A DNA stretch of 63,968 nt, filler included, from Craspedostauros australis (GCA_030167865.1; 14 parts of 14 records of this genome joined end to end with filler, not necessarily neighbours in it); one strand, 5' to 3'; positions 1 to 60,037 are shown, numbered from the whole stretch's first letter. Notes: generated by a model not told the origin, from the letters alone. Made by a program: numbers and translations.

Positions 1-96
1 AAGGTCGACACGTTGGACCAGATGGCTGACATATTCACCAAGCCCTTGGCACGCCCGTTATTCGAATCTCTGCGATTGCGACTATTGGGATGGTAA
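1..96 (+). mobile_element. Ty1/Copia pol 3' end (RNase H C-terminus), partial
   Basis: Frame 1 reads KVDTLDQMADIFTKPLARPLFESLRLRLLGW*, with the Copia RNase H ADIFTK motif. It resembles the QIADIFTKGL...RSKLMGW end of the pol at 22666. Confidence 0.9.
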
Positions 97-120
97 GCGC
101 GGTCCGCCCGTGCCACCGAC

Positions 121-365
121 AAGAGGGAGTGTGCAGATTTAGTGCCAATTCCCGAATCTGGCCGAATCCGAACAATGAGTGTCGATGGACAGACGATACC
201 GCACAAACCACGNGTAGGATCCACGTTGAGCAAATGACCGCTCCGCACAGTCATAATTTTTCAGAACAGACAGGTTTCACCCCCCAACACCTCCGGTCAC
301 GTGAAAAACCTGCACAAGTGGAAGTTACTCTGAGAGTACTCTCTCGGGGATAGGATTCCTCCACA
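121..365 (+). repeat. PPT (121-129) and putative 3' LTR (about 130-365) of the Copia element
   Basis: AAGAGGGAG lies about 25 nt after the pol stop and is followed by TGTG; CACA at 362-365 would give TGTG...CACA termini. The right end is inferred, with no second LTR to compare. Confidence 0.5.
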
Positions 366-1484
366 TCGCGTGGTCAAACTTCCCAGTCTCAGCAACAGAA
401 GGAACGATCACACTGCCCATCAACGTTTGCCACGCACATTGCGCCATCAACATCGTCGCAATCGTCATCGTATCCAATTCCGTTTTCGCGTGCAGAATCA
501 TTGCACATCGTGACCGAGACGAAGATACGGTGCTCAACATTGCTTCAAACACATCAACTTCGACGAGGCACAAATAGCCTCCCGTGGAAGTTGTGTGTCG
601 TGTCGTCACTGACTCAACGTGTGAAGGCAACAGTGACGTATCCCAATAAATCAGGTACATGTCGCAGAAATCGTTCCGCGGAAGCCGCGTGGCGACAGCT
701 GTCTTCCCCAAAACCGTTGCTGATTCCTTGCGCAGATTCTGTTTTGTGCCATGGCCGTCTCGTTTTATCATCACATCAGGAATGCGAGTAAATTGGTGAG
801 CGAGTGGAGGCGTGTGCACAGTACGCATCCACACTCTACTCTGCCGATAGGTACACACACCTCAAGTAATGCGGGATGACATCAATCCCAGAGAGGCAAC
901 ACGTCGTGAACATCGCTCTTGTCATTGTTTGACACGCTCACCTATTCCGACGATGATAACATTGACAACCACTGCAGCGCCAACCACACATCACCATCAA
1001 TCGCTGACACAACAAACAACAAGCGCCAAACAGTTCCGCGGTTGTTGAAGCAGCACCAAGAACAAAAAGAGAAGAAAGAACCAAATTGTGATCGTGTTTT
1101 GGGGCAATTCAAGATTGAGAACCCGTGATCCACGTCACAGAACCATAAACGGGAATGGATGTGTCTTTCATTCACTCTTGATTCATTCGACCAACATGCC
1201 GATTCCAGCTGACGTCATTTGGCTCCAACTGGAAACGATTCCGCACAAAAGATCGACGACGACGACAACAACAGCGGCGACGATGACGATGACGGTCACC
1301 ATGGCGGCGTTGATTGCGGTGGCGAAGGAGAATGGGATCCGATGGGCGAACGCAACGAACCATACTGCAACGGCTGCCGTAGCGAACATCTGTTGAAGAC
1401 GAGACTCAGAGACCGCTTGATACAAACGGTGGAGGAATAGAGACAGAGAGTGAGACCAACAGAGATAGTTCCTGAATCGTGATC

Positions 1485-2714
1485 ATGAAGGTCTTCAACC
1501 TCATTCCGATCCTTTTGGCAGGATCAGCCAATGCGTTCGTCCCAGCTTCGATGCATTCGAGACAGCATGTGGTCGGTGCCAATCAGCTTCAGCTTCAGAT
1601 GCAGAGCAAGGGAGACGACAATGCCAACAATGAGGACATCTCCGCATCCGACGGCTTCCCCCGCCGCGCATTCCTCTCGACCATGTCCGCAGCAACCGCC
1701 GGGATCCTGTCCATGATCGCACCCAACGCAGCATTGGCCGACGACGACGAGTCCTTCGCCTCCATCGCCGCACGTGCCTCCAAGCTCTCGTCGCGTGAAG
1801 GAGAACGCAGCGCGACGCCGCAATTCAAAACGGATGATACGCGCACCATGTACGATTTCAGCGTGCCTGTGCAGGGCCGTGATGTTCCCCTCAAGGAGCT
1901 CATCCGACAGGAGTACGACGAGGAAGGCTTCGCACGCGTCAAGGCCGTGTTGGTGGTCAACATGAAGCAGGATGATCCCATCGCTCGCAAGGATATTCCG
2001 GAGCTCATGTCGTTGGCGTCCAAGTGAGTGTCTTCTTCGTGCGTTGGGCGGCAATGCTGGTTGTGTGTTCACTCCGTGCACTCTACGTCCACGTTCATTT
2101 GTTGTTATGCTTGGCTGGACGTTTGGCTGTCTTCATTTGAATCGGAATTGGGTGTAGTCTGCAATGTCGCGCAATCTCACAAATTCATCAAATGTCACCA
2201 ATACAAATGCATCCAAATGAAATGGAACGAAATGGTTGCAACACGCAGATACGGACGTTCCGGCGAATTCGTCGTCATGCTCAGCCCCAGCGACCAGGGA
2301 TATTACGAACCAGACACATCGGCGTTGATCCGTCTGAAGCTGGCATCGGAGTACGGATACGGCATCAACCCTGCCACCATCCTCACCGACAAGGTCAACT
2401 TCCTCGGCACGGGAGCCCATCCCTTCTGGAGATGGTTGCAAAAGAACTGCCGCACTCCGGCCGGATTGGGCAGAATAGAAGGCAACTTCGAGAAGTTCCT
2501 CGTCGATGCCCGCACGGGAGTTCCGCTGCGCCGCTACCCGCGCAAGTACCTGCCCACCTACATCAAGAACGACATCGAGGCCATCGTGTCTGGAAAGCCG
2601 CTGCCACCGGCCGTCGCCAATTACCAGGAGTCTTGGCGTGCGGCAACGGCCGAGGCCGAGCGTGATACCTACCGATTCCAAAAGGGATTGAACTACTTTG
2701 ATCAGCAGCCATAA
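1485..2714 (+). CDS. Glutathione-peroxidase-fold protein, probably plastid/thylakoid-lumen targeted; join(1485..2023,2249..2714), 334 aa
   Basis: Signal peptide ending SANA-FVP (ASAFAP-like), then a twin-arginine PRRAFL...AALA segment. GPX motifs: YDFSV, VLVVN, HPFWRWL, NFEKFLVD, RRY. The GTGAGT...CAG intron at 2024-2248 joins two ORFs in frame. Confidence 0.85.
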
Positions 2715-2940
2715 ACGTAGTGCGGTGCTTAAGTTCAGTTGGGTTGAGTTGAGATCGAATGGGCTCATTCGTAACGTACTCTAGCGGATTCTCGCAGTCT
2801 GCGAAAGCACTTCCTCCAATGAAAATCAATCACAAAAGTCAACCAATCGATGCACTTGATGTTCATTCATGTGTTGTGAATTATCTGTTGTTTGTAGAAT
2901 AGCTACTGCTGAGTCTCTCTCTCTCTAGCGTTGATGACTG

Positions 2941-5614
2941 TTATTGCACCAGTACAAGTATTGTGGTGAATAGACCGAAAGCAGATCGAGTCAGGCATTG
3001 CATGGGCGTCGATGCAAACATCCGTAACGATGATGTGAAGGACGACGACGACAACGACGATGCCGACGATGGCTGAGAGTTCCGATCTTCCCCTGTTGCA
3101 GTGGAATCAGGTTCATAAACGCTGGAAACACCGACGGAGTCTCGGTTGCCAACAAACATGAAACGGAAATCCAAGGAGTTGCCGCGCCCACGTTGCGTTG
3201 CCTGCAGCACACCATCCACGAAGACATCGATCTGCCATGGCCCATCGCCGCTTTTGCTCGACACGCCGTATCCGTAGTCACCCAGTAGAATGCTCCGCTT
3301 GGTGGGAAAATATATGTTCTCCACATGGTGATCGAATGTTGTTGGTGCTACATCCTGTTCCAGCTGACCCTGCGTGACTTCATCCAACGGGTTGTCGAAG
3401 AAAATGAGCTCTCCCGTCGGTGTTGACACCCGAAGGTCTTTGTCGTCTGTTGTGTATGATGCATTGTGCATTGTGAATGTATGGCATGACCATGTGTGAG
3501 AATGTGAAGGGTGCATGGACGATGGTCAGAATCGATGGAGTTTCGAAGATAGCGCGCAATCAATGCACGATATCATGCCGTACGTGTGTACGTTCATCAA
3601 TTCATCCATTCATCGAAGGCATCGCTCTTACCATCTCCAAACCAGGACAGCGTGAATCGGAAAGCGCCCGTCTTGACACAATTGCGGTTGGCGCAGACGG
3701 TGCCGTCTGCAGTGCAATCCGAAGTGACACAACATTGCGTATCTGCATTGCCATTCATATCGCAGGCTTGCGTCGGCGGCATCGTGACCATCTCCGTGGG
3801 TGCTGCAGAGGGCGATTCTTCGACAGTTGGAAGGGGTGTCCCGTTGTCACTGAGCAAATTGTAGGTGACAACATCATCGCCAACGCCTTCTATTGTTTGT
3901 TTGATGGTTTCATTGTATGCCACGATGAGCGTCCATGCCTTATCATCTTGCTTCGTCAAGATCGTGCATTCGTAAGCTCCATCTGGCGGGTACTCAACAA
4001 CCGATGTTGCGGTATCCGATATTGCCACTGGTGAAATTGAAGTGGAAGAGTCGGTGGGATTTGAATTGATGGAGAAGTAGATGTTCTCCACGTGATGGCC
4101 AAAAGCAGTTGGGGCGGTGTCGCCCTCGAGTCTGCCATTGGTGGAGGCATCAAAGGGTTGTTGGAATGAAACGAAGGTGCCGAGGGGCGTTTTCACGATC
4201 AGATCCTTGTCATCTGCTCGTTGCGTTCGTAGGTATGGCGGACGTGTATGGCAAGCAAAGTTGTTTTTGAGAGGGTGAGAAGTAGGGTACAGCACAGTTG
4301 TCAGTATGACAGCAATCCATACGTGAATGTCTCAGTCCAACACAATCAAGTAGGGCATGCAAATCGTCGGCCTCACACATCTTGTCCAATCCACTTACCA
4401 TCTCCCACCCACGCCAGAGTGAAACGCGGGAATCCCATCTGCACGCAGTTGCGATTGGCGCAGGCCTGCCCTTCGGCACAGTCCACATCGGTGCAGCACT
4501 GCGCTGAGTTGGTGGAGTCGATGGCGCACATGGAGTCAGAGCCCATGTCGGCGTGTTCGTCGGTGACGGTGGGGGTGATGGATGGTGCCGACGATTCATC
4601 GGGTGCGACGGAGTACACGAATATGTTCGACGGCCCATTGCCTGTGTGGTTGAACACGACGCTGTTATTCTCCAGAACGCGCAGATTCCATTCCGATTGC
4701 AATGAACTTGTAGCGACGGTCGATCCCATCACGAAGTACTCGTACATGCCCACTTCGCATGCTTGAGGAATCGACGATGCCTGCGGAGCGATGAAGGTGA
4801 CTCTCTGCATGTTGGCGGAGGCCTGCTCCCACGTGCCAATGGCGACACCGTACACAAATCCAGGCACGAAGTTGGTGGGATTCGCGCGCCACAGTTCCGA
4901 ACCAGACGGCGTGCGGACGAAGAGATCGTACAGCTCATCATCATCTTGCCATTCCAACATAAATTGCAAACATCGGTCCGTCGCAGGCACGCATTGCTCA
5001 GTCAAGCATATGTGGCCGTTGCTGTCAACGCCATCAAAGGTGCTCGTGCTGCAATCGCTGTCCTCGCAGCATTCGGCGGTGTCTGTCGTGCAAGATGATG
5101 TCGGCAGGGATGGTCCGAGAGTTGGTTGGCCAGACGGTGCGTCTGACAGCTGGGTTGGGAGTGAGGTAGGATAGCTTGACTTTGATTGCGTGCCTGTTTG
5201 CGTCGGGGCAGCACTTGCCATGATTGTTCCATTCACATCTTGCTGTGCCAGTTGTCGTAGTTGTTGTTGCTGAGCGTGTTGCTGCTGGTGGTGTTGTTGC
5301 TGAAGAGAGTTCCATGGTTCCGATGCGACTACAGATGCAGATGCGGCCGAGACATAGCCATTGGACCATGTCCCTGTTGCTGCGATGGCGAGCCCGAGCA
5401 TGATGGTCGATGTACAAGCTTGCATCGTTCGTAGCATGTGTGATTGTCGGACCATCCCCTTTCTCATCGTCGTGTTTGCTGACATTCTCATTGCTCTATC
5501 GTGCTTTGAGCTCTCTCTGCCTCTCTCTGATTGTGTGAAGAGTAGAGTACGCGCATCTGTTGAGTAGAATGTGGAGTCCTCTGCGACTACTCCACGTACA
5601 GTCTCCTTGGTCAT
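2941..5614 (-). CDS. Secreted/cell-surface protein with three Cys-rich plus YfaP/DUF2135-like modules; exons 5614(or a later Met)..4399, 4213..3632, 3446..2941
   Basis: Three repeats of CCxxxDC...C...CV followed by FxLxW..D.DL.V.TP.G; repeats 2 and 3 continue G.LE.D.AP..F.HHVENIYF. Hydrophobic N-terminal segment; Ser-rich then hydrophobic C-terminus. Both introns are GTAAG...CAG and keep the frame. Start codon and domain name are uncertain. Confidence 0.75.
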
Positions 5615-6446
5615 GCTCTAGAGTATAATATTATAATAGACAAATTATAATACAGCAGAGTTTCTATCCGTTTCTCCCAATCTTTCTCGCTCTCTTGTCT
5701 GGTCGATCTTGATGTTGATCAGATGTGATGAATTGAGTTGATGTCTCTGCGAGTTGAACACCCATGCTTCTCCGACTTGGGGTACCGTTCTTTCCTCTCG
5801 ACACACTGTGAGTACACTTGCTCAGCCCCAGGACGAAGACTTTGCTCGTGACACCTGCCGGTTTGTGTCAGCAACAACAACGCAGATCTCTGTTTGTGCG
5901 CAACCTCGCTCTGCTCGGTCATCTTCGCGAAGCCACGACGAACCACGCCAACAGCTCGTAACAACAGCGACCATCTGCATGATTTTGGCGCCAACATGAC
6001 CGAGAGTACGTCAAAGAGACGTTAATATTCAACGTCCGTCGTTAAATGGAACCGTTGATCACAAAGTTGGCGATTGCGCGAAGAACGAATCAGAGCGCAG
6101 GAATTTGCAAAATAGGACGCGGTCCCGCCAAACAAGTGAGAGCCGTCGTTTGTTTTCCAGTCTAGCATGTAGATAGATCAGCTTCAAATGCTAGTACTTC
6201 TGGAGCGAGAGAGTTGTAATGGTTCGACTGCTCTCTCCAGTAAATGTGTACAGATGACACCGTAAAGCAGACAGACCATAGAGAATAATAGGAGAAGCAT
6301 TGTGAAAGAGCAATGTTCGTGTTCTACCTTTACTACATGTACTTCTACAAGCATAGTACAATCAAGTTATGTGCGATGTCCTCCGTTCTTCCCTCTCAAT
6401 TTTCAAGCATTAGTCGTATATGTGGAAGTGCGCATCCGTCGTTGCA

Positions 6447-8570
6447 TCACGCACGTGCCTGAACGGTCTCGTTTTCATCTGTCTCTTCTTGCGCATACCG
6501 CTTCATGTTCTTGATGAACTTCTTGGGTCCACGCATCCAACCCTTCTTTTTCTTCTTCACAAGCACCGCGTCTGGATCATGACGCGGCGATGCGAAGGGA
6601 CCGGCCGGGAGAGAGTCCGGGATCCTGTTTTGCGGACTGCTGCTGTGGTTGTTGCTGTGGGAATTCGATGAGGAGGTGCCATTACCTCCCGATCGCATGG
6701 TGGTGGTGGTGATCTCGCGTGGGCGTCCTGCGCTTCTGTTTGATAATGAAGATGACGATGCTGATTTGCCACTTCTGCGGTCTTTGCCTTTGCCGCTGTT
6801 GTCAAGAGATTTGTCCTTGCTGCTCTGCGGCATGTTCGATCTCATCACGACTCGCTCCAGCGTCTCCAAGAAGGAGGATTGCACGGGGGCGTCATCTTCG
6901 GAAGAGCTGGACAGCTCGATTTCCTGGGCGACGCTGTCGGTTGCGGAACTCGTCGTGGAGGCCGGATCGCGGTGGGAGTCGCTGTCGCGGGACAGGCTGA
7001 ATTGAAAGTCACTGCCGCTGTTGTCGATGATCGTGGGACGATTCACCGTCTCGTCTTCGTTGTCCGTCGTGGCGCTCCGGCTGACCGTAGATTGGTCCTG
7101 ACGGTCGTCGGCCACCATCTCGCCTCTGTGATTCGTTCGCAACTTCTCCTTCTTTTCGGTCCACTGGGTTGTGAGGTTGAAGGGCGAGCATCGGAACAGA
7201 CCGAATCCATCGGCTAATGACATGAAGGCGTCGTCGGCCTTTTCTTCCGTCTCGAACGAATCGAACGTGCCAGTTCCATCCATGGCGCGACGCTTCGTGT
7301 TGGAGTCACGCGTGGCCTTGGTGCTGGCCGTCATCGCGTCGCGTCCATCTCTCGACTCCAATCCCTCCGTCGCAAGGGAGGTTGTGTCTTCCATATCGAT
7401 TTGATTTCCTTCGTTGGACGAGGATGAAGAAGAGGCGCCGTCCTTGAAGTAAATGGGATCTTCGTTCGCTCCTTTGGGATCGCGTTTGGTGGAGTCCACC
7501 TTCGACATGGTCTTGCAGATCTTGTCGATGGAGTCCTCGTCATTCTCGTTCTTGTTGCTGATGTTGCTAGCGGTACCGCTGTTCGATCGCAGCTGAGATG
7601 ATGAGTCAGACCGCTCCTGGTTCGATCGCATCCTTTCGATGATCTCCTTCACGGGCGATCTCGGAGAGCTCGGTGACTTGGCCAACTTCGGCTGAGTGGC
7701 TCTGTTGGATGTTGTCTGGGGTGAGCTTTCGAACTTGCGAATGTTCGGAGCCTGTCCTGTGGGGCGGATGTGCGTTCTGGGAGACAGCGGAGGCAGGATG
7801 GGGCGCGTGCTGACGGATCCTTTCGATCCGCGTGAGAGACCGGAGAAGACGGAGGTCTCATCACGCATGTTGCTACCGCCGAGGTTGCTTCCGCTGTGCG
7901 TCCTTCCATCAAGTCTGCTCTGACTGGATGGCGGAGGTGGCGTCGATGGCGGGGGTGGTGGCATCATGCGCTGTTGACGCATCTGTTGCTCCTTGCGCTC
8001 GTCGTTGGCGGTGAAGAAGTTCTGACCGCTGTTGTTGCGCGAGTGGGAACGGTTGGCCGTTGCATTGCTGCCACCGTTTTGATAGGACGGCGGCAAGCGA
8101 TTCGTCGTCGTTTGACCACTGGTGGTGGGCTGGTCGTTCCTTTGCTGGTTGTTGTTGGGACTCGATAGATGGGAGACGCCGGACCGTGTGCTGGCACCCT
8201 CCCATTCCACAGGCACGTTGAGGACGGTTCCGTTGCCGTAGATGGCGTTGGTTGCCGTGACGAGCGCCATCGATGCCACCACCTCGGCCTGTCGTTTTGC
8301 CTTGCGCTTTCGCATGAACCCTGAGCTCCTCACGCTGCCCGACTCGGAATCGCCTGGGTTGTGGATCAGCACAGACTGAGCCGCAGCCTTGGCCGTCTTC
8401 AACGCAGTTTCCTCGCTTCCGCCATTCACCAAAATGGACTTGGCTGCGATCACTGCCGTGTTGGTTGCGTGCGAAAGCAGCCTTGCATTGTCTCCTTTGG
8501 CGCTGCTGTTGCGTGAGATCATCGAGACTCCCGTCACGGACGAATCGTCAAACACAATCGAGTTGGACAT
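6447..8570 (-). CDS. Hypothetical Ser/Thr/Asp-rich, largely disordered protein (707 aa from the first ATG)
   Basis: Long uninterrupted ORF with an Ala-rich helical N-terminal region and a basic C-terminus (KKKKKGW). No recognisable domain. Confidence 0.75.
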   Translation of the reverse strand: MSNSIVFDDSSVTGVSMISRNSSAKGDNARLLSHATNTAVIAAKSILVNGGSEETALKTAKAAAQSVLIHNPGDSESGSVRSSGFMRKRKAKRQAEVVASMALVTATNAIYGNGTVLNVPVEWEGASTRSGVSHLSSPNNNQQRNDQPTTSGQTTTNRLPPSYQNGGSNATANRSHSRNNSGQNFFTANDERKEQQMRQQRMMPPPPPSTPPPPSSQSRLDGRTHSGSNLGGSNMRDETSVFSGLSRGSKGSVSTRPILPPLSPRTHIRPTGQAPNIRKFESSPQTTSNRATQPKLAKSPSSPRSPVKEIIERMRSNQERSDSSSQLRSNSGTASNISNKNENDEDSIDKICKTMSKVDSTKRDPKGANEDPIYFKDGASSSSSSNEGNQIDMEDTTSLATEGLESRDGRDAMTASTKATRDSNTKRRAMDGTGTFDSFETEEKADDAFMSLADGFGLFRCSPFNLTTQWTEKKEKLRTNHRGEMVADDRQDQSTVSRSATTDNEDETVNRPTIIDNSGSDFQFSLSRDSDSHRDPASTTSSATDSVAQEIELSSSSEDDAPVQSSFLETLERVVMRSNMPQSSKDKSLDNSGKGKDRRSGKSASSSSLSNRSAGRPREITTTTMRSGGNGTSSSNSHSNNHSSSPQNRIPDSLPAGPFASPRHDPDAVLVKKKKKGWMRGPKKFIKNMKRYAQEETDENETVQARA

Positions 8571-10860
8571 GATGTAGATGTGTGCTGTTGGTTGTGTGTG
8601 TGACGACGAAGTTGAGCTTTTTCTCTGTTGTTCCTGCTTTGTGATTGTGGGGACCAATTCGTCGTTGTGTGCTTGGTCAACCAAATAGGTGATTGTTTAC
8701 CGATTTCGTATGAATGTTGCAGCAATGCTGTGTCTTCCAAGGCGATTCCGCGATGGAATGCGATCAAGGGCAGTTGCCGATACGTGTAGCTGTGATTGCG
8801 TTCGTTGCGTCGCTTCTCCGTCACTGCGTCGCTGTTGTTGACGTTGTTGCCGATGCCTGGCTGGTTGACAAAGCACGCACCAACGGATGATCCCCAACGA
8901 CTGCCCGAACGAAGGCTTTACAGCATTCACTTATCTCGCACGCCACCAAAACACAGTTCGTTTTCGATTGCGACGATTATCGGAGTCGGAGTTGCAACCG
9001 GAGAAGTTGTGGAATTGCAGCTGGACGCGCTGATGAGATTGCGATTGGTTGCGTTCTGTTTCGCGATGTTGGGTGTGAGTCCGGAGATGGACGATGACGC
9101 AGCAGTCAAATGGGTGCACGATGGAGTCTTGTTCGCGCTGGGTGTGCTTGTTGATGTGATAGTTGTCGGCGTGCCGCCTTCGTGCTGCTCTGTTGTTGTT
9201 TCTCCTGGTCCTCAAACTGGTCCAATCCGTTTATTCTATTTGTGGAAGTGACTGCTGTTCGTGCATGGACGAGCAAGTCTCAGTGATGGTGGAAGAGTTG
9301 AGTTTGATGATGATGCGCGACGTTGTCGTCCGAATGGCATCGAGCAGCGCCAAGACGATCCCACAAGATGATCAAAACGATGGCGAAGTCATCGTGGTAG
9401 CGGATTGTGTGAGACGAAAAGCGGCGATGTTGGTCGGCTGGATATTGGATACATTGTATTCATATATGAATATAATTGAATACACAACACCCTCCAGACG
9501 CAGATGATATCCGTTGGTGGCATGTGCCAGCCGTCATATCGGCGATTCGTCACTTCAAGATCATGTGCTTCGAGCAGGCATGGCTGCTGTCCACGCCACC
9601 AAATGCGGACAAATGTCCGTTACGTGAACATTGGCGAAAGACGCTCTCCTCGGACTGTCGTTGGTCTGACCCATACGACTAGTTCGCCCTTGTAGTTCTT
9701 TGCCTAGACTTGATTCATAGCGAGGCGAATCGAACGTTTTGATGGGAAAATGTCAACTGTTGGAACGGATTGGAAGGCCGGTTATCATCCACTCTGCATC
9801 CTCATCGTCGATGTCCCTGGTTACTTGTGGTGTTGGTGCTGCTGTTGCCGAGCGTGGAAGTCTCTTCCAGACAGGGGGTATGACACTCACAAGTACGATC
9901 TATCTATGCGCCAGGTGTCAACATCCCGTACTTCCATCCCTCCACAAGGTCATCATCGTTGCTGTGAGGGCGACCTTGCGCAGAGTGTATGCAAGGCGCA
10001 AGAGGAGCCTGCATCAAAGTTGTGAACGACGAAACTCCAAGTGGGTGGAGTGCGTCATGCATTGGGGGAGATAGTGGAGATGTCTCGTCTAATGTGTCTT
10101 CTATTTGCATTGTTAGGTTGGTTGTGATGGCACTGCACTGCACTGCATTGGATTGCATTGCAGGAGCAACATCATCAAGAATGTGTCGCGTCTGGTGGCT
10201 GGTTTGGGTGAAGATACAAGAACACGCGGTGAGCGTGTGTATCCGATTGCTCGCAAACCTATCTGCCACTGCTGGTGCACATGGAGGCGATTGGATTCAT
10301 TCATGTCGTCACACGTTTGGGTTGTTGGTGTTCGTCGGATCAAGAGACGCGACGAAAAAGAACGTCGCTGTGTTCCTGGAGGTTCCGAAGTTGGAACATC
10401 GTCTTTCCCATTCTGCCTGCCAAGAACAAGACTCGGGGCGTGTTCGCCGTTGATCCGGATCGTCCGCCCCTTCGTTCTCGTCGTTGGTGGCGGTGTCCTC
10501 CAGTCCCCAGGATGGATACGAGCCATGCGGTTCTTGTTGCGCATTGGGCAAACGTGGTTGTCGTGAAGGAGTTGGATGCATGTTTCCTCTACAGATCCAT
10601 GCGTGGCGGAGCTCGGTTTGTCTCATCCACACGCATTCCGCCTTGCGTCATCTGACATCATCATGTCCGCCGAAACGTTGCAATCAGATCTTTGCGGATT
10701 CGACGATCGGTGTTCTGTGTGCTTGTTTGGGCAGAGTGTTGCATCGCAAAGTGGCGAGCTGCCGGCGTAGAAATGCCAGTCGCTCTGAACTCGCGTGTAT
10801 CAATGCTTGTCTAGTTGCTTGTTCGTTGGTTCGTTCTTTTGATGCAGTTCCACGAAAACC

Positions 10861-11406
10861 TCACGACGAACCCACGCTCATTGGCGCGGCCATCCCGCTG
10901 GAGGCCACAGAAAGACCCCTGAGGAAGTTGTCGGCCGTCAGCGCCCTGCGCATCTTGCGCCCGAAGGCCCGCACGGCGGATTCGGTCTTCGCGCTGGCCT
11001 TGGACTGCTTGTTGGAATGTTGCCGACGCTTGCGGATGCGCTGCACTTCCTTTTCCGCGTTGCGCAGCTCCTCCTCCGGAATGCCAAAGACCTGATGCAG
11101 GATGTTCTTGCGCGTGATGGAGCTCATGCGCAACATGCCCTTCGATGTGCGTGTCTCTTCGTAGTGCTCCAATGTCTGGTCCTCCTGCTCTTCGTAGTGC
11201 CATCCCAAGGCCAGCGGGACGCCGATCTTGGTGTCTGGGTGATCGCCGACGATGCGCTCGTACTCGCGGATCTGGACGTTGCCGAAGGTGACGCGCGTGG
11301 TGTCCTTCTCGCTGGCGATGGAGCTGTCGGCGCTGAGGCTGGCGACGTCCGTGGCTTCGGTCACGTCGGAGAGCTGGCTTTGCGATGTGACTGTCTTCAT
11401 GGTCAT
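10861..11406 (-). CDS. Conserved diatom-type hypothetical protein with an RVxF motif
   Basis: RVTFGNVQIREYERIVGDHP...GVPLALGW is a motif I recognise from a multi-copy diatom family. RVTF fits the PP1-docking consensus. Confidence 0.8.
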   Translation of the reverse strand: MTMKTVTSQSQLSDVTEATDVASLSADSSIASEKDTTRVTFGNVQIREYERIVGDHPDTKIGVPLALGWHYEEQEDQTLEHYEETRTSKGMLRMSSITRKNILHQVFGIPEEELRNAEKEVQRIRKRRQHSNKQSKASAKTESAVRAFGRKMRRALTADNFLRGLSVASSGMAAPMSVGSS

Positions 11407-12138
11407 GGTTGCTCTTGCTGTTGTGTTATGTATTGTGTTATGTTGTATTCTATTCTATGATATTGTAGTAGTATTGTATTGTGTTGCTGAATGTGGATAG
11501 TAGCGGTTGTGCTCGTGTTGTGGGATTGTTCAATTTATGAGCTCTGGGTGCTGGATCATTACCAACTCCGCTGAGCAGGCAACCTCATGCTTGTTTGCGT
11601 GGGAGGTATTACACTCAACAGTGTTGTGTGGGGGCGACTTGCGTGGTCTCGTCTGCGCTGTTCACTCCTTGTGGCTGCGGTTGGTCTTGGGAACCGCGGT
11701 AAAGACCATATATTGGTCGGTTTGCCGATGGGACTCCGATAGTAGTCCAAGTAATCCGTTGCAACAAATTAGACTATCTAGAAGGTACTACCGTAGACAA
11801 CAAATCGTCCTAGTGTGATCATGNNNNNNNNNNNNNNNNNNNNNNNNNNNNNNNNNNNNNNNNNNNNNNAGGGGTGGTCGGGATAGTCTCACTCGGTCTC
11901 TGTGCTGTCGTCATCGCCCTTTTTCAAGTTCGCAGGTGCTGGTGTGGCTTCGAAATCGCTGTCGCTATCGCTGTCCATGTGGAGGTCGATCAACACAACC
12001 TCACGCTTTCTACGCTTCGTTTTAGCGATGCGCGGTGCGCGGGCGCAGGAGGGAACAGGAGGCGGCACCACAACCGAGACGGGGACAGGAGGAACAGCCG
12101 CTGGGCTGGAACGGCATGCCATGGCACGGGGAGCACGT

Positions 12139-12238
12139 NNNNNNNNNNNNNNNNNNNNNNNNNNNNNNNNNNNNNNNNNNNNTTAATTAATTAANNNNNN
12201 NNNNNNNNNNNNNNNNNNNNNNNNNNNNNNNNNNNNNN
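12139..12238. other. Artificial contig linker (N-run, TTAATTAATTAA, N-run); first of 13
   Basis: The same 12-mer, which puts stops in all frames, sits inside N runs at 12183, 21876, 24442, 25898, 42966, 44391, 48133, 51004, 52743, 57741, 59254, 61354 and 62900. Confidence 0.97.
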
Positions 12239-12321: not shown

Positions 12322-12729
12322 TTGCAGCAGTGGCCAATAGTATGGTTGTTGGTGCAGATTTGGCTGTCACAAGAAAACTGGTGCTTCTACTGCTGGCACT
12401 GCTGTGTCTTGTTGTGGCAGTGGCCATTAGTGTGGTTGTTGCTGCGGATATGGCTGTCGCTGTGGCTGCCATGGGATTGCTGCTGCTGCCGCTGTCGATG
12501 GCGGTGGTGCTATCGTTGGTGCTGTTGGTGGTGCTCGCTGCTGCTGCCAATCCATTGATTGCTATCGCCAATTCAGTGCGAGTAGTTGGGGTGCCAGGTG
12601 CTGTGCCTGTTGCGATCCTGCTTTGCCGGCACGATTGCGATTTGTCTTGGATCGTGCTGGACGAGAAGCTGGCTTGCGTTGCGTTGGTGGCAGTGGTTGC
12701 GACTGAGGCCCATTCTTGTGCTGTTCTTT

Positions 12730-13470
12730 GATTTGAAGCGCCTGCCGACTTTCTTGCACATGATCTGGTGTCCGCCCCTCTTTCTTCAGTTTGGCCTTGT
12801 TGAGATGAGGGATCTTGAACTTGTTGCTACCCTCAGTCTCTATGATCTTGTTCATCAGAGTTTCCAGCGTGATGAACATATGCAAGAGTTTTGACGAATC
12901 GTATTCACGAAACATAGTTTCCATGTGCGCAACGAGTTCATCAATTGTCATACATCTCATTCGTAGTTGCGTGGATTGCAGGCTGCAGAAGCACCCAGGA
13001 TCAAGAATGTTCAAGTCAGGGCTCCTTGCAGGTTGTGTCACAAGTTCGATCAACCTGTCCCCCACTTGCATTTGTATGTTGCAACAAAGAACTGCCAATG
13101 ACCATTCCAAATTGAAGCGAAGTCCTTCCCAGGTAGATTAGCTGGGGCATGTCTTGTTGGATGTGTACTGTTTTTTCCCTTTTGAGAACTTCTCCATGAT
13201 AGCAGGGACTACTCTATCCATCAAGAGATCCGTGTAGGTTCCTCTTGCGACAAATCGAGAATTCCAGATCAGAGTCCCTTTGACTCGATTCTTTGAAGTG
13301 CGATGGGCAGGAAGCTCATCACCAGTTGGCCAGCATCCAATCTTGCCATCGAGCCACTCGCTAGAGACAGGATCAATGCGTGGCTTCGCCACTGCTGCGA
13401 GAAACATCATCGTTTGGATTGTGGTCGTGGCTGTGTTGCCGTATCAGGGTGGAGGGTCTTCGCCTGCGAC
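12730..13470 (-). pseudogene. Decayed Tc1/mariner transposase (plant/oomycete DD39D-like), C-terminal half
   Basis: MFLAAVAKPR...DGKIGCWP...RTSKNRVKGT (ORF 13138-13410) and QPARSPDLNILD...FCSLQS...GSNKFKIPHLNK (ORF 12562-13110), broken by stops and frameshifts. Confidence 0.85.
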
Positions 13471-14554: not shown

Positions 14555-15475
14555 ATCACAACTGAATAAAATCAACTTCTGTTGATCACACCAGTGACCC
14601 ATCACAAACGTGCCCGCTCCCAGTCGTACCAAGAAAGATACCGTGTCCTCCTTTTGGTATGAGAACCATGAACATGTGACACAGCATGTCCCGATACAAA
14701 CCAACAAAACAACAACCTTGTCGGTGATGTCAGACCAGAAAGGGTGCAGGGGCAGTGGGTAGGAGTTGTATCCCACCTGAAGAAACGGAAACCAACATAT
14801 AGTGGACACAACCCATGCTCTTGATGGACAAAGGTCAATGGTATGATTGAACAAACAGAAAGTTCAGAAAAGCAATCAAGATCGATCAATCATCAATGTT
14901 AGAACGAAATCGAAGATGGGTCGTAGGGTACCGCACCGAAAACGCAGAGTGATCAGATCGTTGTTGTTGGTGAGGATATTGTTGATTATTGAGTTATTCG
15001 TATGGTAGGATGTTGACAAGCTCCAAAGATTGAGATCTTGGAACTGTGAGCATGAGAGAGGCATGGCAGGTCTCATGCAATTGCAAGTGAAATTAACACG
15101 GAGACAACACGACAAATGTGCGTGTTACTGCGTGAAGTAGAGTTGGCAAAAGTCAATGAACAAAACACCACAATACCCCGTGTTGTGAATTATGTCTTCT
15201 CACGATGTTGTTTGTTGTACGATCACACGATTGATCATATTCACTTGAGAAGGTCATGGCAAGATTCGCATGTGTCGCACCCAAGACCGAAGTCTGTCCT
15301 GATTGGACAGAGAGGTTCATCTTGGCAAGAAATCCATTTCCGCGACATTTTGGATCTGTGATTGACGGGAAAACGGTTCTTGCGACGCGAAATGTGACAC
15401 AAATTTGACACAACGGAATTTTGACCAAATTTCCGTTCGGAACGGAAAAGGTAAGAGAAGTGGAGATTTCTGATT

Positions 15476-15682
15476 TATCAGCACAAAATCGAATAGTGCT
15501 AAAGTACGTTACTCCCGTAGCCCCCACTATCTATAAATTTCACTTGTGTTCGGTTCAGCAATCGCATCGCCTGTAGCTCAACGGTAGAGCACCAGTAATT
15601 CTNNNNNNNNNNNNNNNNNNNNNNNNNNNNNNNNNNNNNNNNNNNNNNNNNNNNNNNGTGATTTTTCGATAGTGCTCTAATA
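15476..15682 (+). repeat. 5' LTR of the TRIM (N gap at 15603-15657)
   Basis: Runs TATCAGCAC...GTGCTCTAATA and has the same length as the 3' copy. Confidence 0.9.
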
Positions 15683-15696
15683 GATTAACAGTCGCA
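15683..15696 (+). promoter_or_regulatory. Primer-binding site GATTAACAGTCGCA, complementary to the tRNA-Asn(GUU) anticodon arm
   Basis: The reverse complement TGCGA-CTGTTAA-TC fits tRNA positions 27-40 with a GTT anticodon. The same 14-mer follows a Copia LTR at 59538. Confidence 0.8.
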
Positions 15697-15932
15697 GCTA
15701 GTTCTACATCGCTGAGTTAGGACAACCTTGCACAACACGCCTTCGTGGGCGCGTTGCGATCACCGCATTTCGACCCAGTCTCACACTTGTCTGCTACGGC
15801 AGCACTCCCACTTCGTCTGGCAGTATTAGCCACCCAACAATGAGGGTGCCCCGAGATGGGGAGACGCGGGAGATGACAACTTTCCGTCATAGTGCTCTTG
15901 AGCAGGTGGTCCACGGTCGTAGCGTAGGGGAG

Positions 15933-16139
15933 TATCAGCACAAAATCGAATAGTGCTAAAGTACGTTACTCCCGTAGCCCCCACTATCTATAAATTTCAC
16001 TTGTGTTCGGTTCAGCAATCGCATCGCCTGTAGCTCAACGGTAGAGCACCAGTAATTCTAACTGAGGTTCCGGGTTCGAATCCCGGCATGGTACTTTGCT
16101 TTTGCTCTCCCCTTGTGATTTTTCGATAGTGCTCTAATA
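15933..16139 (+). repeat. 3' LTR of the TRIM
   Basis: Fully sequenced copy, preceded by the PPT and followed by the TSD. Confidence 0.9.
16024..16094 (+). ncRNA. tRNA-like Pol III cassette inside the LTR, not a canonical tRNA (second, partly masked copy at 15567-15637)
   Basis: A box TAGCTCAACGG (16031-16041), D stem GCTC/GAGC, B box GGTTCGAATCC (16073-16083), perfect T stem CCGGG/CCCGG, TATAAA at 15989-15994, T-runs downstream. The acceptor stem pairs only 4 of 7 and the anticodon loop AATTCTA lacks U33. Confidence 0.8.
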
Positions 16140-16283
16140 TGATTGGTCGACGGGTGTCGCTATTGTTAGAGATTCAGCGTTGCGCTAATACAATTCGTGT
16201 GGTGCCAAGGCTCGGAGACGTTCAATTATTAGACTGATAAATTCCATGCAACACGTGTGTTTAATTTAAATGAAATGTACAGT

Positions 16284-17361
16284 CTAATCGTGACCCATTC
16301 GCTGTCGGGCTGTGGACAGCGCCTTGTCGACGTCGAACGTTGGATAGCCGTTACCGAGTTCGATTTGGGTGATGACCATCACCGCATGGAAGGCTGTGTG
16401 GTGTTTGTCCACGTGGTGTCGCCACTTCTGTCCCAAACAGCTCCACTGCTTCAATCTACCGTTAATCGTTTCGTGGCGAGCACGAAGAATGCCATCAGCT
16501 TTGAACGTGGGTGGGAACACTTTGTCATCTCCTCTGTAGCCGTTGTCAGCAATCACAACCTCGTTTGCCCGTATTGCTTGTTTAAGCTCAGAGCGGAAGA
16601 TAGCCAGGTCATTCATGTATCCACACGGAAAGGGGCCATTCACCCAAACAATGTCTCCTCTACTGATGGAAACAGCCACTTCATACCTCACACCAGCAGC
16701 TTTGAACTTGTGCGAGTACCACACCTTGTTAAACGGTTTGGGGTCGTTAGTGCGAAAGTCGGTGCCGTCGACAGTCAAGAAAGCACTCCCATTTCTGTCT
16801 GCGTCAATAAAGCGGTTGTCTAGGTCAATCTGTAGGCAAACAAGATGGATACGAGCAGTCACGAACGGAAATTGTGAGTGAGTCGTGTTAGGCGGAAAAA
16901 AAGAGTTCGCATCGGTCGGGGTTCTCATGTGCTGCACTTACGATGTCATGACGCAACTCCTCAACGGCCCGAGCCACGACCCACGCCCACTGGCGGAAAG
17001 TTTTCGCAGTGGTGTTCATCATCCGCGCCACCACTGTCTCCGCCAAATACATTCGGAGGAACGAGCACATCCAAAGGAGGTGCTTCGGCTTCGCATTGCA
17101 GGGGAGAAGATCTGTGCCAATCAGGTCTTCCCAGAGGAGGTGAGTGATGGATGGATCAGTGCCAAACATCCCACGAAAATCCCACAACTGTGCATTGTTG
17201 AGAGTGTCCATGTCACGGTGATCCACATCATCTCCCATCAGCAAAAATCCTTCCGCCGCAAACTCACAAGCGCTGGTACTCTCCGCTGCCAAATCCGTGT
17301 TTGCGAGTCGTGCCTGAGTAGTGATTCGACTATGTGGAATACAAGTTCGCGTGGATTTCAA
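16284..17361 (-). mobile_element. PIF/Harbinger-ISL2EU (PHIS)-like DDE transposase; exons about 17361..16942 and 16829..16284
   Basis: Catalytic motifs TVDGTDF, IADNGYRG and RARHETINGRLK, plus WYSHKF and VWVNGPFPCG. N-terminal KPKHLLW..SFLR.Y. The GTAAGT...CAG intron at 16941-16830 gives RHDI/IDLDNRF in frame. Start uncertain; first in-frame ATG at 17238. Confidence 0.85.
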
Positions 17362-22665: not shown

Positions 22666-24200
22666 CTACCATCCCATGAGCTTGGACCGGAGACGCTCGA
22701 ACGCGTCTCGGGCAAGCCCCTTTGTGAAGATGTCTGCGATCTGAACCGGTGTTGGAATGTGAAGAATGCGAATGAAGCCTTCCTTGACCCAGTACCAAAA
22801 GAAGTGCCACTTTGTCAAGAAGTGTTTGGTTCTCGATGTCACTTTGTGCTGTGTGGCCAGTGCAATGCATGCCTCGTTGTCCTCAAACACAGTGCATTGG
22901 ATATCTGTTTTGAGAGGCTCCTGCATTTGCGTGGCGGCGGCCACTTCGCGAATCAGCTGCTGGATCGGGATGAGAGCTCGCATAGCGAGTGATAGAGCTG
23001 CGTATTCAGACTCCATGGTTGATAGCGCAATCTCTGTTTGCAGCTTGGATTTCCAAACGAGCGGACATCCCCCCAGCACTACAACGTAACCGGTTCGGGA
23101 TCGCACTGCATTGGGTGATTCGTGTGCTTCCCTCTTATACAGCCCAGCGAAGTCGGCGTCCACGTAGCATTGGAGGTCGAGCTTCCCAGTTGGCCGTACG
23201 ATGGTTCCTTGTGTTCTGGTTTGCTTGAGATAGCGAACGATCATCTTCATGGCTTTTGCGTGGGGTTGTCGTGGATCGTTGCCGAAGCGAGCAACCTGAG
23301 ACACCGCATAGGCCAGATCTGGTCGGGTGTTGGTAGTCAGGTAAAGCAACATGCCAACAATGGACCGGTAGTTCCAGCTCTCTTTCATTGGTGGTGAGTC
23401 AAGACAAGCTCCCAAGGCGAGTTGTGTCGTTGGTACAACATTCGGATTGCAGTTTTCCATTCCGGTTGCCGCTATGATCTTGTTGATGAGCCCTGTCTGT
23501 CGCAGATGGATGGTTCCGTCCTTTGGATTCCTCGTAAGCTGGATCCCAAGGAAGTCCGAGAAGGTGCCTTCTTGGGTCAGTTCGAACCCTCGTCGTCGCA
23601 TGGAAGCAATGAACTGGTTGGTTTCTGCTTGCGTACGGGAGGCGATCCCGGCATCATCCACATATAGCACCATCATCATGCCTGGTCGAGTGAACAAGCA
23701 TTTTTCATGGTCACACGCCTTGAATCCTTCCGCTGTGAGTGCTTTGATGAGGTGCTCATACCACAGCCGAGGTGCAATGGTCAGTCCGTAAAGACTCTTC
23801 TCCAGCTTTAGGCACGTGTTCGGCCCTTTGGACGAGCGAAACCCCCGTGGTGGATGAAGGAAGACTGGCTTGTGGATTCGAGCTTGGACGAAGGCGTTCG
23901 TGAAATCAATGGAGGAAGTCACCCAGCCAAGAAGCACAGAGACCATAAGGAATACTCGGACGGAAGGCCAAGCCACCACCGGTGCGTAGGTGCTGGCGTC
24001 CTCGGACATGAGGTCACCTCTGCAGCACCATCTCCCTTTGTACTTCTTGACGGATCCGTCTGGTAGGCGCTTGCGGCGGAAGACCCAGGTTCCTGGATAG
24101 ATACGGTCGGTGGCTTGTTCTTTTGGTATCTCTACCCAGGTTCCCTTGCTGGTGAGATCGTCGATCTCCTTCTGTGCAGCTTCCATCCATCTTCCTTTGT
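22666..24200 (-). mobile_element. Ty1/Copia pol (RT-RNase H), interrupted at its 5' side
   Basis: WVFRRKR...KYKGRW, IDFTNAFVQ, KSLYGL, YVDD, YVDADFAG, ADIFTKGL. Confidence 0.95.
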
Positions 24201-24396
24201 TGTTGATAAAACGATAATGAAAACGAAGTGAACTTACTGAACGCCGAAGGGTGATCAATCCGTGGTAGTACAGTAGGTTGGTGAGTTTGAGTGTGAGTGT
24301 GTCTTAGTCTTTAAAAGCTGTACGAATCCAAATGAGACTTTCAAAAGGATTGTGAGCATGTGATGTGCAGCATCCATTATAGTTGGATCTGCAACA
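24201..24396. repeat. LTR of another element nested in the Copia pol, 196 bp
   Basis: TGTTG...CAACA termini; pol-like sequence stops at 24200. Confidence 0.65.
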
Positions 24397-43021: not shown

Positions 43022-44279
43022 CATCATCATCGACTTCGAGACAGCGTTCTTGCATGGGGATCTCGAAGAGGAGATCTACATGCAATGCCCGAAAGGCATG
43101 AGGCACGAGGCCGACGAATGCTTGCTGCTCAAGAAGACGATCTATGGGCTCGTGCAGAGCGCCAGGCANNNNNNNNNNNNNNNNNNNNNNNNNNNNNNNN
43201 NNNNNNNNNNNNNNNNNNNNNNNNNNNNNNNNNNNNNNNNNNNNNNNNNNNNNNNNNNNNNNNNNNNNNNNNNNNNNNNNNNNNNNNACGACTGCCTGTG
43301 CATCGGGGATGAACAGGAGCTGAAGGACCTCGTGGGGGACATCAAGGCAAAGCGATTCGGTATCAAGGTGGAAGAAGATCTCGAAGACTATCTCAGTTGT
43401 AAGATCAACTTCAACCACGACGAGACCAATTGCTGGGTGAACCAACCGCACATCATCAACAACATCATCAGCACTTTCAAGGACGATGTGATGAAGCTGC
43501 AACGATACGGTACACCAGGGACGCCAGGACAAGGCATCCAGAGAGAGAGTGACTCACCAAAGGTCGACAAGCAGCGACANNNNNNNNNNNNNNNNNNNNN
43601 NNNNNNNNNNNNNNNNNNNNNNNNNNNNNNNNNNNNNNNNNNNNNNNNNNNNNNNNNNNNNNNNNNNNNNNNNNNNNNNNNNNNNNNNNNNNNNNNNNNN
43701 NNNNNNNNNNNNNNNNNNNNNNNNNNNNNNNNNNNNNNNNNNNNNNNNNNNNNGAAGATGAGACCGAAACCCTTGGAGAACGATGCATGGAAGATTGTGG
43801 TGTACACCGACAGCGAGTTCGCTGGTGACAAGGACAATCGCATCAGCGTTGGAGGACATCTGGTTCTGCTGCAAGGAGTGCCTATCATCTGGAGATCGAA
43901 GGCGCAACGCAGCGTGACACTGAGCTCGACCGAGGCCGAGTACGTTGCACTGTCGGAAGCAGGCAAGGAGATCCGCTTCCTGACGCAATTGATGAGTGAC
44001 ATCGGGTTGGAGATACACAGGCCGACAGACGTGATGGTTGACAACGTGGGAGCAATCTTCATCGCTTCCAACCCATCTACATCGGCCAGAACCAGACACA
44101 TCGATATCCGACATCACTTCATCCGAGAGCTGATTGCGAACAGAGAGGCTAGAGCCCGGTTCGTACGTTCAGAGGACAACATCGCTGACGGCTTCACCAA
44201 GAACACGAAGAAGGAGATCTACGACAGACACAAGGGAGATATCATCCAGCCTCGGTCAGCAATGGACCGAGAAGAGTGA
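43022..44279 (+). mobile_element. Ty1/Copia pol fragment (RT-RNase H), gapped
   Basis: DFETAFLHGDLEEEIYM, KTIYGLVQSAR, YTDSEFAGD, LSSTEAEYVA, HIDIRHHFIRE, ADGFTK. Confidence 0.95.
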
Positions 44280-59309: not shown

Positions 59310-59551
59310 CTGTGTGTTGCAACACATGTTGCCTCAGCATCATTTTCATCATTTCATCTCCATCTGCTCACAATTCAGACTCCAACAGTTCTGCATTGGG
59401 CCAGCTTACATCATCTAAACATCAATTAACCACTCAGAGCACACTGACAATTCCTACTAGCTTCACTCTACTTCATTTGACGGACCTGATCACTCCCAAT
59501 CTCGAGGTAAGTACCCATTTTTGTCTGTGTTCTATCAGATTAACAGTCGCA
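59310..59551 (+). repeat. Partial 5' LTR (ends TCTATCA at 59537) plus PBS GATTAACAGTCGCA (59538-59551) of a Copia element
   Basis: A CA end abuts the same PBS as in the TRIM and lies about 500 bp upstream of a gag-like ORF. Confidence 0.7.
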
Positions 59552-59786
59552 ACCGCCTACATCCTGTGCTGAACGCGTGAACCATCGTCATATCCCATTG
59601 TCATTGAGCATTCATCAAAATCATCATCTTGCAACATCGCGTGACGACGTGAAGTTGATTCCATCTCTGTGACTTCAGCTTTGCTGCGCAGAACATCAGA
59701 GCCAATCGGCTTGTGCACACTCACTTCCATCACTTTTAGACGCATTCGTCAGTGATATCCATTGCCTTTTTACCCAAGTACTTCAT

Positions 59787-60020
59787 CAACACATCATCCA
59801 TTTGGTATCGATCACATCCGATCTACCAACACATCATCCATTTGGTATCGATCACATCCGATCTGCCAACACATCACACAAACAAACAAACCATCAATCA
59901 ATCAATCGAACAATCAATCAATCAATCAAACAAACAATCATTCGAACAAACAATCAAACAATCAATCACACACAAACAATCACACACAAACAATCACACA
60001 CAAACAATCAAACACAAACA
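59787..60020 (+). repeat. 40-bp tandem duplication (59787-59876) and CAAT/CAAA simple repeats in the Copia leader
   Basis: Directly visible. Confidence 0.85.
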
Positions 60021-60037
60021 ACAAACTACATTCCAAG

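Follow-up and report, generated by a model that had tools for sequence, protein, structure and literature searches.

In Drosophila copia and yeast Ty5, both of the Ty1/Copia type, the primer-binding site (PBS) pairs with the anticodon stem-loop of a tRNA and not with its 3' CCA end. The primer, whose end lies within the 3' strand of that stem, is the initiator methionine tRNA (iMet), a use that reportedly has experimental support. The elements described here resemble copia and Ty5 in their type, in the part of the tRNA that is contacted and in the proposed end of the primer, but the tRNA is tRNA-Asn and it is assigned from sequence alone.

The use of half-tRNAs extends to other tRNAs. Among the Copia clades of green plants, Osser, Bryco and Gymco-II have a 1/2 tRNA-Met primer and Bianca a 1/2 tRNA-Ile primer (Neumann 2019; PMC6317226). 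The half-tRNA type is thus lineage-specific there, as it is over the 33 loci reported below; however, the half types given in the available part of that survey are Met and Ile only, and tRNA-Asn is listed among the 3'-end primers. In FunCo1, a Copia element of filamentous ascomycetes, the PBS is complementary to an internal stretch of tRNA-Lys (Donnart 2017; PMC5445492), which by our reading consists of the loop and its closing pairs, as in the site described here, although both the tRNA and the hosts differ. The preliminary description of the present DNA, which had taken the iMet fragments of copia and Ty5 as its background, was incomplete, since anticodon-arm PBSs for other tRNAs have been published, including one for tRNA-Asn in Puccinia Helenus elements (Kojima 2024; PMC10886601).

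Helenus (TRIMp3) elements occur in fungi, animals and plants. Those of rust fungi are short and non-autonomous, carry tRNA-like sequence in the 3' half of each LTR followed by T runs, are flanked by 5-bp duplications and have anticodon-loop PBSs, among them PBSs for tRNA-Asn; Helenus elements are proposed to have originated through insertion of a SINE into the LTR of a TRIM (Kojima 2024; PMC10886601). They have the anticodon-loop PBS in common with Copia partners whose LTRs are unrelated to theirs. In Puccinia, where Helenus TRIMs and Copia families alike have such PBSs, once for tRNA-Asn-GTT, the interiors of the tRNA-Asn lineage begin with cGATTAACAGTCGaa after LTR ends like ...ttttaaca. The TRIM described below is like Helenus in its structure and in its relation to a Copia lineage. 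Cassandra TRIMs also carry a fragment of a Pol III gene in the LTR, but the gene is that of 5S rRNA and the hosts are plants (PMC10886601). The word 'diatom' does not occur in the available part of the Helenus paper. Conversely, the available main texts of the study of the diatom Copia-type CoDi elements (Maumus 2009; PMC2806351) and of a 2021 re-examination of two diatom genomes (PMC8147415) mention neither tRNA nor primer binding, the one 'PBS' of the former being a buffer. No diatom report of Helenus/TRIMp3 (2024 on) or of a diatom Copia PBS was found in the non-subscription literature searched. What is new here is therefore the host group (diatom-type) and the conservation across a whole lineage; the kind of element itself is already published.

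Two copies of one 14-mer in the window

The window, i.e. the whole stretch of DNA analysed (63,968 nucleotides of Craspedostauros australis), consists of some 14 small contigs strung together with the spacer N44-TTAATTAATTAA-N44, with extra N gaps inside contigs, so that features adjacent in it are not necessarily linked in the genome. The 14-mer GATTAACAGTCGCA is found at 15683-15696 and at 59538-59551, in both cases on the + strand and on separate contigs, and no further match with up to two mismatches exists in the whole window. As originally described, the first copy follows a TRIM LTR and the second lies on another contig. The first starts at the first base past the 5' LTR, and the second is 487 nt upstream of a gag-like ORF. 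The usual TGG start is indeed missing from the 14-mer, and no other tRNA-like PBS (TGG...) directly follows either U5. ARAGORN called no tRNA gene in the window. The 14-mer was absent, in either orientation, from a full-text literature search, and the seven papers matching its first 11 nt, GATTAACAGTC, in either orientation have unrelated titles.

Two occurrences in 64 kb could be a coincidence and the resemblance to an anticodon arm an accident. With up to two mismatches allowed, two or more matches were seen in 11 of 100 shuffles, and finding some exact pair of 14-mers somewhere in 64 kb is not rare. However, for this 14-mer in particular the expected number of further exact copies on either strand is about 5e-4 (2 x 63968 / 4^14), and the place and strand of both copies are those predicted. 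With the strand bias documented below, chance is so improbable an account that it can practically be set aside.

Structure of the TRIM

The element that carries the first copy has the following features.

15471-15475, + strand: left copy of the duplication (TSD) TGATT, identical to the right copy at 16140-16144
15476-15682, + strand: 5' LTR of 207 bp, TATCAG...CTAATA, interrupted by an assembly N gap (15603-15657) and otherwise 100% identical to the 3' LTR
15683-15696, + strand: PBS GATTAACAGTCGCA, complementary to positions 27-40 of tRNA-Asn(GTT) and the same as the PBS of eight metagenomic Copia loci
15697-15926, + strand: non-coding internal region, without runs of four or more T
15927-15932, + strand: end of the polypurine tract (PPT), GGGGAG, abutting the 3' LTR
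15933-16139, + strand: 3' LTR of 207 bp, complete, a direct repeat of the 5' LTR
16029-16088, + strand: tRNA-derived segment in the 3' LTR (Rfam RF00005 at 35.4 bits, the gathering score being 29)

The whole element is 664 bp long, and its 250-bp interior opens with GATTAACAGTCGCA and closes with ...GTAGGGGAG. It thus has the structure expected of a TRIM: less than 1000 bp, two LTRs, a short non-coding interior whose 5' end bears a PBS and whose 3' end bears a PPT, and a TSD. The direct repeats 15476-15602 = 15933-16059 and 15658-15682 = 16115-16139 are 100% identical, which makes the LTRs identical over all 152 comparable bases, the 5' copy being interrupted by the assembly gap. The LTRs end in ...GTGCTCTAATA, their termini TATCAG...CTAATA form an imperfect inverted repeat and the 5-bp duplication at the flanks (TGATT/TGATT) is perfect. 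This identity, together with the perfect duplication, argues for a recent insertion. The TRIM is present as a single copy in the window, and it is from the identical LTRs and the duplication that its mobility and its status as a family are presumed.

The tRNA-derived sequence within the LTR is a feature of Helenus/TRIMp3 elements. In the 5' LTR it begins at 15572 and extends into the N gap. A motif scan placed an A-box-like TAGCTCAACGG at 16031 and a B-box-like GGTTCGAATCC at 16073, and two T runs, TTTT at 16100-16103 and TTTTT at 16119-16123, lie 12 and 31 nt past the tRNA-like part, where they would be predicted to terminate Pol III within the same LTR. ARAGORN called no tRNA on this segment, the acceptor stem is degenerate and the anticodon loop reads AATTCTA; in addition, its fold is not stabler than those of shuffled sequences (z 0.40), which makes a functional tRNA unlikely. 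The segment was also considered as a primer for the element itself and rejected, only 4 nt of PBS complement being present within the LTR.

An ORF on the - strand at 16284-16928, 145 bp from the TRIM, encodes a DDE_Tnp_4 (PIF/Harbinger-type) transposase domain (E 4.4e-10), and a 169-aa ORF at 12562-13071 (-) looks transposase-like by eye and is without a Pfam match.

The Copia element with the same site

The second copy of the 14-mer lies on a contig with a gag-like ORF, and a reverse transcriptase (RT) of the same lineage lies on a contig of its own.

59310-59537, + strand: presumed 3' portion of the 5' LTR of the Copia, with the U5 end ...GTGTTCTATCA; the contig begins here, and the assignment is made from the PBS and gag
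59538-59551, + strand: Copia PBS, the same 14-mer, following ...GTGTTCTATCA
59552-60037, + strand: untranslated leader with tandem and microsatellite-like repeats
60038-61309, + strand: gag-like N-terminal part of a polyprotein, ATG at 60038, N gap at 61100-61153, the ORF being cut by the contig end
61410-62855, + strand: RT of the same lineage on its own contig (RVT_2 at 61536-62587, E 1.6e-17)

The preliminary description had called this second element a gag-encoding Copia. The gag-like ORF matches no Pfam family and a word search gave no longer gag homologues; a profile-free search of a representative library gave 1533 homologues at E<=0.001. The two longest of these, P0047 (1881 aa) and P0098 (1698 aa), have RVT_2 in their C-terminal half, and no Pfam family was found in the other ten of the 12 longest that were scanned. 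The window gag aligns with residues 1-314 of a third polyprotein with RVT_2, P0151 (28% identity, E 1e-30), and the window RT contig with residues 1188-1532 of the same protein (48% identity; tblastn coverage 1139-1623). The two parts, although on separate contigs, are thus colinear with a full-length relative, and this, together with the homologues containing RVT_2, bears the earlier assignment out. In P0151, Pfam detected RVT_2 only, even at E<=1, and no gag, protease or integrase domain; a conserved DRGANGG motif (alignment A3) lies about 800 residues ahead of the RT.

The window Copia is not complete: the gag contig stops at 61309, the RT lies on a different one and there is no second LTR in the window. 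Since no second copy of 59310-59537 exists in the window, in which the gag contig spans 59310-61309 only, the LTR status of this segment is taken from relatives that have the motif right after a demonstrable LTR end. Its U5 end resembles those of two metagenomic relatives, L181 and L182 (...CTTCTATCA followed by the PBS). From the PBS onward, the first 17 nt of the window Copia are identical to L171 619-635, and the first 17 nt of the TRIM to L139 136-152.

In the Atlas clusters nearest to the gag and RT parts, Bacillariophyta is the commonest recorded phylum, a lead rather than proof as to a diatom host that also recalls the diatom Copia-type CoDi elements. At 59786-60030, in the leader of the window Copia, about 42 bp (CAACACATCATCCATTTGGTATCGATCACATCCGATCT...) are duplicated in tandem; some 150 bp of CAAT/CAAA-type microsatellite-like repeats come next and reach almost to the gag ATG. 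Two more Copia-type fragments in the window, 22720-24204 (-), which has RVT_2 (E 1.2e-38), and 43764-44204 (+), are 23-26% identical to P0151; both represent other lineages, with their PBSs off-contig.

Conservation of the site in metagenomic relatives

With the window's gag alone, no relatives were retrieved from viral contigs or from metagenome contigs. Alignment A3, made of five long homologues, led to 78 metagenomic loci (L121-L198; 435,405 bases) that hold gag-pol relatives (RVT_2, Copia type) and in which no tRNA gene was found. The 11-nt core GATTAACAGTC has 38 occurrences in these loci, all on the coding strand and none on the opposite one, with a chance expectation in 435,405 bases of about 0.1 per strand. 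Such a distribution in independent relatives, at LTR ends, already contradicts an accidental origin of the motif. It is present in 33 of the 78 loci. Twenty loci have a long direct repeat and therefore probably contain a full unit; 19 of them have the core, the exception (L175) being a 5'-truncated copy. The full 14-mer is found exactly ten times, in eight loci, and with up to two mismatches 32 times, in 27 loci; near-variants with a one-base insertion or two substitutions were recognized by reading after a ...TCA end in L125, L133, L134 and L135. Most of the 45 loci that lack the core are without the relevant flank, two of them (L157 and L160) starting just downstream of the expected PBS, and no PBS was recognizable in the 481-1295 nt upstream of gag in L166, L169, L188, L144 and L177.

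At all 34 distinct junctions the motif is preceded by a T-rich stretch ending in CA (27) or TA (7). Where the edge of an LTR could be fixed independently of the motif, the core begins at the very next base, in the TRIM as well as in four other cases. In L139 the repeat 1-135 = 6379-6513 is followed by the core at 136, and in L186 the repeat 1-4690 = 7543-12232 is followed by the core at 4691. Between L161 and L165, LTR homology stops at L165 6287 = L161 7111 and the core of L161 is at 7112. L170 1-189 equals L175 12870-13038, after which L175 enters other DNA. It is because of the 38:0 strand bias, the presence in 33 of 78 loci (19 of the 20 with long repeats) and the place of the core at the LTR edge that we regard the 14-mer as a PBS.

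Within the site, positions 1-11 are invariant while positions 12-14 differ by element family, e.g. between L121, L122, L124, L127, L128 and L129 and the others. The triplets by family are GCA (9), ACA (9), TTG (6), GTA (5), TCA (2), TCG (2) and ATA (1), which suggests that pairing beyond 11 nt is either host-specific or dispensable.

Terminal overlaps of 91-127 nt are seen in many of the metagenomic contigs, for example L122, L127, L146, L149, L152, L154 and L193, which have one LTR between pol and PBS and are hence circular permutations, and L142, L171, L183 and L186 are tandem units. These forms could be an effect of assembly driven by the LTRs, or they could be real circles and tandems.

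Match to the anticodon arm of tRNA-Asn

A scan of IMG/VR for the exact 14-mer gave at least 120 loci. Among the 120 listed, ARAGORN found a tRNA-Asn(gtt) gene across the 14-mer in 65, the other 55 being apparently chance or coding matches. In the printed contexts of the viral tRNA-Asn genes, a D-stem GAGC and G26 are followed by TGCGA, CTGTTAA and TCGC(A/G), so that the 14-mer corresponds to positions 27-40 and all 14 bases of the PBS are complementary to the anticodon arm of these genes, which are viral ones and not the host's. The complement had earlier been read as TGCGA-CTGTTAA-TC, an arm with a GTT anticodon ending at position 40, exactly as it appears in the viral genes. U33 and a purine at position 37 are given by the Asn register only, as judged by reading, and tRNA-Asn(GUU) is the only tRNA predicted to fit the site. 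The 11 nt that are conserved among the relatives are the anticodon loop and its two closing pairs. Giant-virus bins (GVMAG) L011, L027, L028, L039, L056, L058, L063, L065, L068 and L073 have tRNA-Asn genes with exactly this anticodon arm.

Anticodon stems of eukaryotic tRNA-Asn differ among taxa, a point against carrying the match over to the host. The variation of PBS positions 12-14 could mirror differences between the tRNA-Asn stems of the hosts, and the tRNA-Asn of the present host is predicted to match at least the 11-nt core.

Could the motif instead be a conserved cis element with another role, e.g. in packaging or dimerization, or in recognition of the U5 border by integrase or RNase H, its likeness to tRNA-Asn being incidental and priming taking place elsewhere or from another primer? 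The link between site and primer rests on sequence, the tRNA-Asn match comes from viral genes and PBS positions 12-14 vary, all of which this explanation would accommodate. However, the first base past U5 is by mechanism where the 3' end of the primer pairs, no TGG-type PBS is present there, and the conserved 11 nt coincide exactly with the tRNA-Asn loop and two closing pairs. The same arrangement is, moreover, read as a PBS in the Copia and Helenus elements of rust fungi (PMC10886601). We therefore consider another role very unlikely.

The proposed explanation, which we hold to be probable, is that the 14-mer is a genuine PBS for a tRNA-Asn anticodon-arm primer and a trait of the lineage, and that the TRIM is a non-autonomous dependant served in trans. 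Minus-strand DNA would be started by an RNA that pairs, at its 3' end, with the G of PBS position 1, and the LTR boundary places C40 opposite this G as the 3' end of the primer. This primer would most likely be cytoplasmic tRNA-Asn(GUU) in the form of a 5' fragment whose last base, C40, belongs to the 3' strand of the anticodon stem, and would pair through positions 30-40 always and through positions 27-29 in some families. By analogy with copia, the tRNA would be cleaved after position 40. As a lineage trait, the site would go with a Ty1/Copia group that is associated with diatoms and has RVT_2, a DRGANGG protease-like motif and a gag without a Pfam family.

A variant of this scheme is that the primer does not pre-exist as a half: an intact tRNA-Asn would be annealed and then nicked in the particle, by the RNase H of the element or by a host nuclease, or another small RNA derived from tRNA-Asn would be used. 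The present data fit any timing and any mode of making the 3' end at C40. Ke and colleagues are said to have shown in 1999 that Ty5 employs the anticodon stem-loop, which would sit well with this variant, whereas the primer of Drosophila copia is, reportedly from work by Kikuchi in 1986, a 5' fragment of tRNA-iMet, which speaks against it. Overall the variant seems unlikely, and a pre-existing 5' half of tRNA-Asn is the form of primer that we favour. Self-priming of the Tf1 type was rejected, the longest PBS complement in the LTRs and leaders being 4-5 nt.

A second cis signal and the proposed dependence of the TRIM on the lineage

The comparison of PPT and termini between the TRIM and Copia that had been suggested at the outset was run on the metagenomic relatives. 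Among the 35 loci that hold the 3' end of pol plus at least 80 nt, 33 have GGGGAG at most 400 nt away, and in 29 it is directly followed by TG or TA, typically as GGGGAG-TGACA (here and below the hyphen marks the junction with the LTR). The hexamer is common in these loci (0.84 per kb), and weight is therefore carried by the junction context and not by the hexamer alone. In the 14 loci with PPT and PBS on one contig, their spacing corresponds to LTRs of 299-1387 bp. The junction of the TRIM, GGGGAG-TATCAG, conforms to the lineage pattern GGGGAG-T(G/A), and its LTR end in TA, which differs from the CA of the window Copia, is that of the seven TA junctions among the 34 of the lineage. In total, the TRIM shares with the lineage the PBS (14 of 14 bases), the PPT end GGGGAG-T, the termini T(A/G)...(C/T)A and the 5-bp duplication.

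Beyond these signals, there is little in common. The TRIM interior has no similarity to the leader of the window Copia and, beyond the PBS, none to the 78 metagenomic loci. When local alignments of the TRIM with the window Copia were compared with shuffles, no similarity beyond the 14-mer was significant: the observed score was reached by 230 of 2000 shuffles downstream of the 14-mer and by 511 of 2000 at the LTR end, and by 271 of 300 for interior against leader and 300 of 300 for LTR against LTR. Anchored at the PBS, the U5 ends of the two elements are identical at 8 of 11 positions (P about 0.001, for a region chosen post hoc).

The question is then whether the TRIM is served by this lineage at all. 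It could be an inert relic, or the use of tRNA-Asn could be common to unrelated LTR lineages. Its LTRs and interior are unrelated to the window Copia and, beyond the PBS, to the 78 loci, it ends in TA where the window Copia has CA, and one copy is known. Against this stand the four independent cis features common to the TRIM and the lineage, as well as the LTRs identical over the 152 comparable bases and the perfect duplication. We judge it improbable, to about the same degree as the nicking of an intact tRNA, that the TRIM is unserved. The preferred reading is that the TRIM, by virtue of the cis signals of the lineage (PBS, GGGGAG, termini and 5-bp duplication), would be copied and integrated in trans by some member of it. 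The TRIM itself, non-autonomous and with a tRNA-derived segment in either LTR, would belong to the Helenus/TRIMp3 type.

The original suggestion, of a diatom Copia lineage that is primed from the tRNA-Asn anticodon arm and whose machinery the TRIM shares, is accordingly supported, strongly by the conserved place and strand of the motif and also by GGGGAG-T. The narrower idea of a parasite-helper pair holds at the level of the lineage, through the PBS and GGGGAG-T, but not for the two window elements as such, which otherwise share only a weakly similar U5 and of which the Copia is fragmentary.

Relation to fungal elements and implications

The tRNA-Asn site of rust fungi allows a direct comparison. 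The Asn-type interior start of Puccinia, cGATTAACAGTCGaa, has 12 of 14 bases in common with the 14-mer, from which it differs by an extra C at its 5' end, allowing pairing to position 41, and by ending in GAA instead of GCA (PMC10886601). By eye, the fungal PPTs (...GGAGGTG or ...GGGGGTG) and LTR start (TGTTGA) differ from the GGGGAG-TATCAG of the TRIM, and only the PBS is alike between the Helenus families in the available part of that paper and the present element. It is thus possible that the TRIM originated independently of the described Helenus families. We also put forward, as a rather doubtful alternative, that the tRNA-Asn PBS and a similar U5 end (...TTCTAACA followed by GATTAACAGTCG) are the sign of a single old Copia clade, or else of a transfer that links fungi with stramenopiles. 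The clade would be defined by priming from the tRNA-Asn anticodon arm and would repeatedly spawn or carry TRIMs with tRNA promoters. PBS positions 12-14 would then track the tRNA-Asn stem of each host and so provide a read-out, from sequence, of the host range of environmental retrotransposons.

If the proposed explanation is true, anticodon-arm priming by tRNAs other than iMet and TRIMs with tRNA-derived LTR segments would extend to diatom-type genomes. The tRNA-Asn site itself is stable throughout a Copia lineage that environmental assemblies contain in abundance. On the practical side, LTR annotation pipelines that seek PBSs for tRNA 3' ends will miss such elements, for which GATTAACAGTC just past an LTR end and GGGGAG-T ahead of an LTR start are usable markers. 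The TRIM also offers a testable case of a non-autonomous element that is matched to its helper by PBS, PPT and termini and not by LTR similarity.

Finally, an LTR end ...TTCTAACA (ttctaaca) directly before an Asn-type PBS is seen at L141 661-670 and L164 5698-5707 and, by eye, in Puccinia Helenus-2B_PSt/LTR-2_PSt as well (PMC10886601).
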